A stretch of 64,000 nucleotides of DNA from Escherichia coli. GTDB lineage: Bacteria > Pseudomonadota > Gammaproteobacteria > Enterobacterales > Enterobacteriaceae. Below are positions 1,860 to 37,116 of the stretch, piece after piece. A program made the translations under genes and the position numbers. Within the stretch, counting starts at the first letter, position 1. Every line of letters begins with the position of its first letter. The DNA lies in the NCBI RefSeq assembly GCF_045037415.1, contig NZ_CP173438.1, one strand, 5' to 3'. Under the pieces are notes generated by a model, which searched no databases, was not told the DNA's origin, and saw only the letters and a list, made by a program, of their open reading frames with translations.

Positions 1860-2870
1860 ATGAAGGCTGCAGTTGTTACGAAGGATCATCATGTTGACGT
1901 TACGGATAAAACACTGCGCTCACTGAAACATGGCGAAGCCCTGCTGAAAATGGAGTGTTGTGGTGTATGTCATACCGATCTTCATGTTAAGAATGGCGAT
2001 TTTGGTGACAAAACCGGCGTGATTCTGGGACACGAAGGTATTGGTGTGGTGGCAGAAGTTGGCCCTGGTGTTACTTCATTAAAACCAGGCGATCGTGCCA
2101 GCGTGGCGTGGTTCTATGAAGGATGCGGTCATTGCGAATACTGTAACAGTGGTAACGAAACGCTCTGCCGTTCAGTTAAAAATGCCGGATACAGCGTTGA
2201 TGGCGGGATGGCGGAAGAGTGCATCGTGGTCGCCGATTACGCGGTAAAAGTGCCAGATGGTCTGGACTCGGCGGCGGCCAGCAGCATTACCTGTGCGGGG
2301 GTCACTACCTACAAAGCCGTTAAGCTGTCAAAAATTCGTCCAGGACAGTGGATTGCTATCTACGGTCTTGGCGGTCTGGGTAACCTCGCCCTGCAATACG
2401 CGAAGAATGTCTTTAACGCCAAAGTGATCGCCATTGATGTCAATGATGAACAGTTAAAACTGGCAACCAAAATGGGTGCAGATTTAGCGATTAACTCACG
2501 CACCGAAGACGCCGCCAAAATTGTGCAGGAGAAAGCCGGTGGCGCTCACGCAGCGGTGGTGACAGCGGTAGCTAAAGCTGCGTTTAACTCGGCGGTGGAT
2601 GCTGTCCGTGCAGGTGGTCGTGTCGTGGCTGTCGGTCTGCCGCCGGAGTCTATGAGCCTGGACATCCCACGGCTGGTGCTGGATGGTATTGAAGTGGTCG
2701 GTTCGCTGGTCGGCACGCGTCAGGATCTAACCGAAGCCTTCCAGTTTGCCGCCGAAGGCAAAGTGGTGCCGAAAGTCGCCCTGCGTCCGTTAGAGGACAT
2801 CAACACCATCTTTACCGAGATGGAAGAAGGCAAAATCCGTGGCCGTATGGTGATTGATTTCCGTCGCTAA
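1860..2870 (+). CDS. adhP: Zn-dependent alcohol dehydrogenase, propanol-preferring (336 aa)
   Basis: ORF 1830..2870; start taken at ATG 1860 ([11 protein letters not shown]) preceded by aaaaggagg SD; GHEGIG and CGHCEYC zinc-ADH motifs. Confidence 0.93.
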
Positions 2871-2879
2871 GAGGTCTTT

Positions 2880-2907
2880 GCTGCGACTGCCATGTTCGGG
2901 TCGCAGC
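2880..2907 (+). terminator. Possible terminator hairpin after adhP
   Basis: 8-bp stem gctgcgac/gtcgcagc with 12-nt loop, followed by ctgtttcg (weak T tract). Confidence 0.35.
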
Positions 2908-3055
2908 CTGTTTCGCGAGACGCTTTCCGTAATTTCACTCTTCTTCTTTTCCTCCCCCATATTTCCCCTCACAATTCGCGAAAACGTAGCGAAATTTGTT
3001 GCGCTGCACGGAACAATAGTGATAGTGTTCCTTTTGAGGGAACAAGGATGAAGAG

Positions 3056-3333
3056 ATGATAATGAATTTCAGACACAAGGGATTGCGTGACTTGTTTCTT
3101 CTCGGCAAAACCTCCGGCGTTATACCGACGCAAGTCAAACGATTACGCCACCACTCGCTGTGATTGATGCAGCATGCTGTCTTGCTGATATCGATATGCC
3201 CGGTTACCGACTACATCCGTTAAGCGGCGATCGCGATGGAATTTGGGCGATATCTGTCTCGGGCAACTGGCGAATCACATTTGAATTCGTCAATGGCGAT
3301 GCATACATACTGGATTACGAGGACTATCACTGA
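3056..3333 (+). pseudogene. HigB-like (RelE/ParE superfamily) toxin gene disrupted by a frameshift near 3158-3163
   Basis: Frame A 3056..3163 = MIMNFRHKGLRDLFLLGKTSGVIPTQVKRLRHHSL*; frame B 3160..3333 = [57 protein letters not shown]; stop overlaps the yddM ATG (tgATG); pattern matches plasmid-maintenance-killer HigB family as recalled. Confidence 0.6.
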
Positions 3334-3617
3334 TGAAAATGGCCAATCATCCCCGCCCGGGGGACATTATTCAGGAATCACTGGACGAACTTAATGTCAG
3401 CCTGCGCGAGTTTGCCAGAGCAATGGAAATTGCGCCCTCAACGGCAAGCCGATTGCTGACCGGAAAAGCAGCTTTGACGCCAGAAATGGCAATAAAACTT
3501 TCCGTGGTGATCGGCAGTTCGCCGCAAATGTGGCTGAATCTGCAAAATGCCTGGAGTCTGGCAGAGGCGGAAAAAACGGTGGATGTGTCGCGACTGCGCC
3601 GTCTGGTTACGCAATAA
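3333..3617 (+). CDS. yddM: HigA-like XRE-family HTH antitoxin / putative transcriptional regulator (94 aa)
   Basis: ORF 3333..3617; HTH motif [26 protein letters not shown]; positioned immediately 3' of the HigB-like frames. Confidence 0.88.
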
Positions 3618-3645
3618 AAAATGGCGCTTCTTAAAGCGCCATTTT
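3618..3645. terminator. Bidirectional intrinsic terminator between convergent yddM and fdnI
   Basis: 11-bp stem aaaatggcgct/agcgccatttt with 6-nt loop; U-runs on both strands. Confidence 0.65.
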
Positions 3646-3666
3646 CAGCTTAAAGTTCAAAAGAGA

Positions 3667-4320
3667 TTATATCCCTTCTTCACTCTCTTTTTTCGCTTCT
3701 GCCTTCTCGATTTCACGATACCAGCGCGGATGGTGTTTCTTCGCCCAGCGACGGCTCACCTTCCCTTCGATCATCCCTTTAATCGATCCTTTCACCCAGA
3801 ATGCCATATACATATGGATCAGGATGGCGTGGATCAGGATGATACCCGCAGCCGCATGGATCAGCAGGCTATAACGGACAACCTGTATCGGGAAGTACTG
3901 CGCAAAGTACGGACGCCAGATAATCACTCCGGTCACCAGCAGCACGAAAATCATGCTCATGATTGACCAGAACATCATCTTTTGCCCGGCGTTGTACTTA
4001 CCGACATCCGCCACTTTGTGCTCATTGCCTTTTAATACTTCGACAATGTTCAACAGCCACGGAATATCTTTCTTATCCGGGATGTTGTGATGCACAAAAC
4101 GCACAAACATAAACATCAGCGCGACGAAAATCGCAATGCCGAAGAACGGGTGCAAAATGCGTCCCATCTGCGGCGTACCGAAGGTTTGCGTCAGCCATTG
4201 CAGCGTCGGGAAGAAGAACGAAATCCCGGACAGCGCCACCAGGAAGAAGCAAATCACCACGGTCCAGTGACAGGCGCGATCAATAAATTTGGTGCGCACA
4301 ATCATTTTCGACTTACTCAT
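3667..4320 (-). CDS. fdnI: Formate dehydrogenase-N gamma subunit, cytochrome b556 (217 aa)
   Basis: ORF 3667..4362 trimmed to the [12 protein letters not shown] start; membrane protein; start overlaps end of fdnH. Confidence 0.92.
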
Positions 4321-29237: not shown

Positions 29238-29411
29238 TTAAAACAGAGAAAACAACAGCGCCACCGGGAAACTCATCGGCCATGTTGCCCCCACCAGAAA
29301 GGCGCTTAAGAGACGGATGCGTTTCTTATCATGAGAAAGAAACCAGGTGATAAGAAATGCGATTGCTGCCATAACCGCATAGAAAACAAGCATGTGTTGA
29401 TAGAGAGACAT
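29238..29411 (-). CDS. ortT: Orphan membrane toxin OrtT (57 aa)
   Basis: ORF 29238..29459 trimmed to MSLYQHMLVFYAVMAAIAFLITWFLSHDKKRIRLLSAFLVGATWPMSFPVALLFSLF; single-TM small toxin. Confidence 0.78.
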   Translation of the reverse strand: MSLYQHMLVFYAVMAAIAFLITWFLSHDKKRIRLLSAFLVGATWPMSFPVALLFSLF

Positions 29412-29606
29412 GTACGGGCGTCCAGCCAGATGAATAAAACGCGCGCAAATATGCGTCATTTTTTGACGTGCATCAAGTTTTTTTCACCAGTTTGAGAAAA
29501 AATCATCAAACAGCAACTTGCCCTTATCCATCTTCAGAATGAGTATTATTGCGGATTTTCTTAACCCGTACTATACACATAGGGGCAATGATAAAAGGTG
29601 GCAAAA

Positions 29607-36876: not shown

Positions 36877-37116
<240 letters not shown>

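Follow-up and report, generated by a model that had tools for sequence, protein, structure and literature searches.

A chromosomal higBA operon of Escherichia coli with a frameshifted toxin gene and an intact antitoxin gene, yddM

Genes and signals between adhP and fdnI

The stretch of DNA analysed here, which we call the window, comprises 64,000 nucleotides of Escherichia coli (contig NZ_CP173438.1). Near its beginning, a pair of short genes on the plus strand lies between two core genes, adhP (positions 1860-2870, plus strand) and fdnI (3667-4320, minus strand). A spacer of 185 nt separates adhP from the first gene of the pair, a toxin gene of the HigB family (PF05015) carrying a 1-bp deletion (higB, 3056..3333), whose native start is the ATG at 3056 and whose native stop is the TGA at 3331-3333. 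The second gene is yddM (3333..3617), which is intact, convergent with fdnI, and encodes a HigA antitoxin of 94 aa that belongs to the HTH-XRE repressors. The pair has the architecture of a higBA operon: the toxin gene stands upstream of the HTH-XRE HigA gene, and the two overlap in the sequence TGATG, where the toxin stop (3331-3333) and the yddM ATG (3333-3335) have one base in common. This overlap had been claimed in the first-pass annotation of the DNA and is confirmed. In addition, yddM is preceded by a Shine-Dalgarno sequence of its own, GAGGA, at 3319-3323.

The same annotation had described two consecutive frames, 3056-3163 and 3160-3333, which would jointly encode a HigB-type toxin, and we found both exactly as described. 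They were missing from the earlier list of open reading frames only because each of them is shorter than 60 aa. Frame A (3056..3163, plus strand) runs from the native start to a premature TGA at 3161-3163 and gives a product of 35 aa, MIMNFRHKGLRDLFLLGKTSGVIPTQVKRLRHHSL, whose first 32 residues are native and whose last three are H-S-L. Frame B (3160..3333, plus strand), read from a GTG at 3160-3162, gives 57 aa (VIDAACC...DYEDYH) and corresponds to the native frame, residues 36-92, cut off from the higB start codon. It is fully open, and its GTG overlaps the stop of frame A as GTGA (3160-3163).

Alignment of the window (CGCCACC|ACTCGC) with an intact allele (CGCCACCGACTCGC) revealed that one G is absent between positions 3152 and 3153 of the plus strand. 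The loss alters codon 33, CGA (Arg), and reading then continues as CAC TCG CTG TGA. It had been proposed that adding one base near 3158-3163 would restore an ORF of about 92 aa; the size was right, as the repaired protein has 92 aa and reads ...KRLRHRLAVIDAA... at the junction, while the site had to be moved to 3152|3153 by the alignment with the intact allele. The missing G is the sole difference within the gene between the window and the intact allele of strain EC5654. Hence, the window holds no single uninterrupted higB ORF, reading being stopped after 35 codons, and its copy is a pseudogene of the HigB family and not a working member.

Upstream of higB, a block at 2996..3051 on the plus strand (TTGTTGCG...GGAACAATAGTGATAGTGTTCC...GGAACAAGGA) contains the half-sites GGAACA (3010), TGTTCC (3026) and GGAACA (3039), together with the higB Shine-Dalgarno sequence AAGGA at 3044-3048. 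Two inverted repeats were detected in it, GGAACAATA/TAGTGTTCC and TGTTCC/GGAACA (labelled I2 and I6). B2 E. coli, Citrobacter and toxin-less E. coli all keep the block, while its flanks diverge. It is likely to comprise the promoter and a putative operator of the operon. A promoter consensus scan returned one promoter-like site, at 3034-3063 and partly within higB, which is no more than the chance expectation.

Downstream of yddM, a hairpin with a 12-bp stem at 3618..3645 (-16.2 kcal/mol; z = -4.8 against shuffles) is common to both convergent genes, yddM and fdnI, and is likely to be a bidirectional terminator. A terminator consensus scan of the locus found none, though this hairpin folds strongly. 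When positions 2800-3750 were scanned against Rfam, no known RNA was detected, and the sub-threshold matches all fell on the terminator hairpin. One of them, over 3606-3651, was to the Salmonella sRNA STnc320, with 31.5 bits (gathering score 50), and probably reflects terminator similarity only. We also observed that the spacer between yddM and fdnI (3615-3667 in the window; L002:2246-2480 and L003:1928-2340 in two compared loci) varies by 0 to 2 copies of a REP-containing unit of about 178 bp, with none in the window, one in EC5654 and two in K-12. Every such unit has a terminator-hairpin copy at its border, which argues that the copy number varies through recombination between hairpin copies.

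Family identity of the repaired toxin and its partner

The first-pass annotation had called for a profile search with the joined translation, and the result bears out the proposed family. The repaired 92-aa protein matched Pfam PF05015 (HigB-like_toxin) with E = 4.2e-17, residues 4-92 aligning to positions 2-91 of the 91-position model, and Proteus vulgaris HigB (PDB 4MCT_B) with E = 1.2e-31, residues 1-92 aligning to 2-93. The structures of HigB from the P. vulgaris plasmid Rts1 (PDB 4MCT, 4MCX, 4PX8 and 4YPB) were matched end to end with 57% identity, so that the similarity of the predicted product to HigB is far beyond chance. The identity to 4MCT also implies a RelE-type microbial RNase fold. 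Among the NCBIfam profiles scanned with the repaired toxin, only TIGR02385 (RelE/StbE) matched, with 17.4 bits against a cutoff of 27.9, and no HigB-specific model fired. Since this score is below the threshold, the gene is to be assigned to HigB rather than to RelE/StbE, and as judged from these comparisons its kinship with RelE/ParE lies at the superfamily level only. The names ‘ParE-2’, used for the locus in the literature (PMC7232551), and ‘RelE/ParE family’, used by RefSeq, are superfamily names.

His54, Asp90, Tyr91 and His92, which are critical for HigB activity (Schureck et al., PMC5027501), are invariant in the alignment of the E. coli protein with the prototype. In an AlphaFold model of the intact allele, with a mean pLDDT of only 69, helices are predicted at residues 10-15 and 24-39 and strands at 51-55, 63-68, 72-79 and 82-90, and codon 33, where the frame is lost, lies midway along helix 2. 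According to the model, frame A includes helix 1 and breaks off within helix 2; its 35-aa product has neither the sheet nor any of the catalytic residues. Frame B, in turn, holds the entire beta-sheet and the four residues His54, Asp90, Tyr91 and His92.

The partner had been described as antitoxin-like and intact, and this holds. YddM scored 93.7 bits with the equivalog model TIGR02607 (antidote_HigA), whose cutoff is 47.7, and its sequence shows 100% identity to the HigA of E. coli CFT073 whose structure has been solved (PDB 2ICP/2ICT; PMC3968373). Residues 7-87 of YddM align with P. vulgaris HigA (E = 1e-18). Ser23, Thr37 and Arg40, reported to contact operator DNA in the prototype HigA (PMC12266136), are kept in YddM, as read from its sequence. 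In K-12, YddM (Xre family, 94 aa) was among 16 candidate transcription factors chosen for ChIP-exo validation, and a yddM deletion strain was built for RNA-seq (PMC6237786).

Among characterised systems, the HigB-HigA pair of plasmid Rts1 from P. vulgaris (4MCT/4MCX; ribosome-bound 4YPB and 4ZSN) provides the closest frame of reference in our comparison: the order is toxin-first with an overlapping stop and start, both toxins have 92 aa with 57% identity from end to end and the same four catalytic residues, and inverted repeats precede the operon in both. The differences are that Rts1 higBA is plasmid-borne, whereas the E. coli locus is chromosomal, placed between core genes and common to Citrobacter; that YddM has 94 aa and Rts1 HigA 104 aa; and that the toxin gene of the window is broken. 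The locus has been listed as ParE-2/HigA-2 (TA20) in the AIEC strain NRG857c and the UPEC strain CFT073, with a toxin gene of 279 nt and an antitoxin gene of 285 nt, K-12 and HS having the antitoxin only (PMC7232551). NRG857c and CFT073 have the same genes at the identical chromosomal site, but their toxin is intact with 92 aa, whereas the window carries the deleted-G allele. The HigBA system of K-12 (ygjN-ygjM) resembles the locus in name, in its toxin-first order and in belonging to the RelE superfamily, but it lies at another locus and belongs to another subfamily; the PDB sequence matches of the repaired toxin, at E values up to 1, did not include K-12 HigB. At the ygjN-ygjM locus, B2 strains have only an orphan higA (PMC7232551).

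Alleles and origin of the locus

Using positions 2871-3660 of the window as the query, we searched 5,426 complete E. coli genomes. The yddM region was present in 5,412 of them, and the toxin part was covered in only 1,328. In EC5654, an uninterrupted gene of 279 nt stands at the equivalent position and encodes WP_000605675.1 (92 aa). The exact 60-mer centred on the deletion of the G was found in 544 of the 5,426 genomes and the corresponding intact 61-mer in 493, and another 171 genomes carried a diverged allele; WP_000605676.1, the one that we sampled, is uninterrupted and differs by one amino acid. The deletion occurs, among others, in the ST131 references JJ1886 and JJ1887 and in strains recorded as ‘O25b:H4’ and ‘O25b:H4-ST131’; the deleted-G allele marks ST131-type genomes. 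In SK1144 and JJ1886, PGAP annotates a ‘type II toxin-antitoxin system RelE/ParE family toxin, frameshifted’ with identical boundaries. The alignment with other Enterobacteriaceae suggested in the first-pass annotation has therefore defined the exact indel and shown that other E. coli, as well as Citrobacter, have intact alleles.

Two strains, FCI17 and FCI23, have the 790-bp haplotype of the window but retain the G, and an intact toxin is annotated in them. Over 50 kb, apart from the G, only 11 scattered SNPs and a single indel in a homopolymer separate FCI17 from the window. Because such a near-identical genome keeps the G, the deletion is recent on this haplotype and one step from an extant intact allele. 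The rest of the deleted-G higB is identical to intact alleles, and the lineage is too young for further decay to confirm the loss of function.

One could argue that the frameshift arose in sequencing or assembly and that this strain in truth has an unbroken gene, as the intact allele is only one base away and the near-identical FCI17 and FCI23 show the G. The allele counts obtained with the 60-mer and the 61-mer centred on the indel led us to reject this idea, to which we give practically no chance: the deleted 60-mer recurs in complete genomes from many laboratories and years, JJ1886, JJ1887 and O25b:H4 strains among them, the site CCACC|ACTC has no homopolymer run of the kind that usually gives rise to indel errors, and the fragments of 35 and 57 aa have been deposited independently many times. 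It had been stated earlier that a continuous frame on resequencing would refute the pseudogene, and the same deletion in 544 independent complete genomes answers this concern.

Programmed -1 ribosomal frameshifting, giving a low level of full-length toxin, would likewise make the two frames a working gene, and a -1 shift anywhere in 3091-3160 would indeed join them. However, no slippery heptamer of the form X XXY YYZ occurs in the frame overlap at 3091-3163, an unbroken ORF is both the ancestral condition and the widespread one, and the deletion is recent and restricted to one haplotype, unlike a conserved recoding signal. We regard this explanation as exceedingly improbable, and the frameshift as a true, inactivating deletion.

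Other lesions of higB were found elsewhere. Strain 04-00955 has an in-frame deletion of 9 bp, and strain AH21G053 a deletion of 17 bp between ACGC direct repeats, which is also annotated as frameshifted. We observed that three independent higB lesions fall within about 25 nt (3128-3153 of the window; L005:1427-1696 and L006:1429-1690 in the compared loci), and this clustering looks like a small deletion hot spot.

The toxin gene is wholly absent from about 4,100 genomes (about three quarters), K-12 included, all of which keep yddM. In the four toxin-less genomes that we inspected (K-12, B7A, WB61 and FDAARGOS_1281), adhP and yddM are invariably separated by a spacer of 145 nt (L003:1501-1645, L008:460-605, L009:301-445 and L010:301-445), equivalent to positions 2871-3332 of the window. 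This spacer keeps the TTGTTGCG..GGAACAATAaTGATAGTGTTCC..GGAAC block and the last few bases of higB beside the yddM start. An initial MAFFT alignment had placed the K-12 remnant at the start of the toxin gene; this was rejected, as pairwise realignment puts it at the 3' end of higB, by yddM. K-12 has the same YddM protein as the window, with 9 synonymous and no non-synonymous differences, and the same upstream block, but it has lost nearly all of the toxin gene, which in the window is complete but for one base. As a separate observation, an 11-nt segment between 9-nt arms (ATTATTGTT/AACAATAAT) is inverted in B7A relative to K-12.

The YddM protein is identical across all seven E. coli loci compared. 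Their yddM genes differ by 5-9 nucleotides per pair and all these differences are synonymous, which points to purifying selection whether the toxin is present or absent. An orthologous higB-higA pair occupies the adhP-fdnI position in Citrobacter sp. NCU1 (L012:4001-4563), a genome that also has an additional ABC-ATPase gene between maeA and adhP. Between Citrobacter and E. coli, dN/dS is 0.11 for higB and 0.08 for higA, with dS of about 0.7. Given the pair at the same site in Citrobacter and this purifying selection, the presence of both genes is the ancestral condition, and selection maintained the toxin for a long time.

The G+C content of the locus is unremarkable. Plasmid homologues are at most 57% identical, except three records at 90% or more, one of which is a 385-kb E. 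coli record with 100% identity. A recent plasmid origin was considered and rejected, plasmid homologues being below 60% identity apart from those three. On the strength of these comparisons, the locus is a resident chromosomal module, with no recent import from a plasmid.

Loss of the toxin and retention of YddM

Taken together, we are highly confident that the locus is a chromosomal type II higBA operon whose toxin gene was knocked out when this lineage recently lost one G from codon 33. The ancestral, intact state is a toxin-first operon between the core genes adhP and fdnI. By homology with the P. vulgaris Rts1 system, intact HigB would act as an endoribonuclease that depends on the ribosome and cuts mRNA within the A site, a dimer of HigA (YddM) would bind and neutralise it, and HigA would repress the operon via inverted repeats overlapping the promoter. 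The intact E. coli allele is presumably toxic, in view of its 57% identity to the characterised prototype. In the window, translation from the higB start stops after 35 residues, before the beta-sheet and the four catalytic residues, so that the annotated start gives no active toxin. YddM, with its own ribosome-binding site, is still intact and would act on as an autorepressor. In the prototype system, HigA alone represses robustly (PMC12266136). We consider it most likely that YddM still autoregulates in the lineage of the window, where it may bind the conserved upstream block.

A two-piece toxin has also to be weighed, in which reinitiation at the GTG at 3160-3162 would yield the 57-aa C-terminal fragment with some activity alone or together with the 35-aa peptide. 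The GTGA stop-start overlap exists, all the catalytic residues are retained in frame B, and translation of this frame would preserve the TGATG coupling to yddM. If this were true, ST131 would have a split or attenuated HigB, the 57-aa fragment, still restrained by YddM. Nevertheless, there is no Shine-Dalgarno sequence ahead of the GTG, where the bases read ACCACTCGCT. The break falls in the predicted helix 24-39, with residues 33-35 lost, and the helices, which have to pack against the sheet in this fold, also contact 16S rRNA (PMC5027501). Other lineages have lost higB destructively, through the 17-bp deletion or the deletion of the whole gene, which suggests that the loss is tolerated or favoured. 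For these reasons, we find the two-piece toxin very unlikely, and favour an inactivated higB beside an intact yddM. This agrees with the first-pass annotation, which saw a decayed higBA module with its toxin inactivated and its HTH antitoxin kept, the single-base indel being its only lesion.

The higB pseudogene itself is already known: RefSeq marks it as frameshifted in hundreds of genomes, the locus is in the literature and the structure of YddM has been solved. In public protein databases, the 35- and 57-aa fragments appear as ‘Killer protein’ or hypothetical protein. The literature that we searched on yddM, CFT073 higBA and ST131 higB contained no study that put this E. coli HigB to an experimental test, and that on ST131 higB no paper specifically about the frameshift. 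An excess of orphan antitoxins has been reported in ST131 and other B2 lineages (PMC10790755).

Two further observations concern toxin-antitoxin genes elsewhere in the window. A hicB remnant at 36877-37113 (minus strand) represents a second decayed module; it is a partial pseudogene lacking the N-terminus according to the annotation of FCI17, a 67-aa ORF survives at 36877-37080, and no adjacent hicA is annotated. An orphan toxin gene, ortT, lies at about 29239-29412 (minus strand), again following the annotation of the near-identical FCI17, and the window and FCI17 differ in the length of a T-run at 29484, just downstream of it.

As to what YddM may do without its toxin, it possibly acts in regulation or protects against related toxins. 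A role as guard against a close plasmid-borne HigB was rejected, there being no close plasmid counterpart bar the three records at 90% identity or more. The case is one of ordinary gene decay and not a new system, and it is of little importance alone. It is, though, a clean example of a toxin lost repeatedly by different routes while the antitoxin stays unchanged, and the deleted G may offer an easy lineage marker by which to recognise ST131-type genomes. The repeated loss of the toxin, set beside a yddM that is kept in 5,412 of 5,426 genomes with only synonymous changes, argues for a function of YddM that is independent of HigB, and we infer such a toxin-independent role for it.
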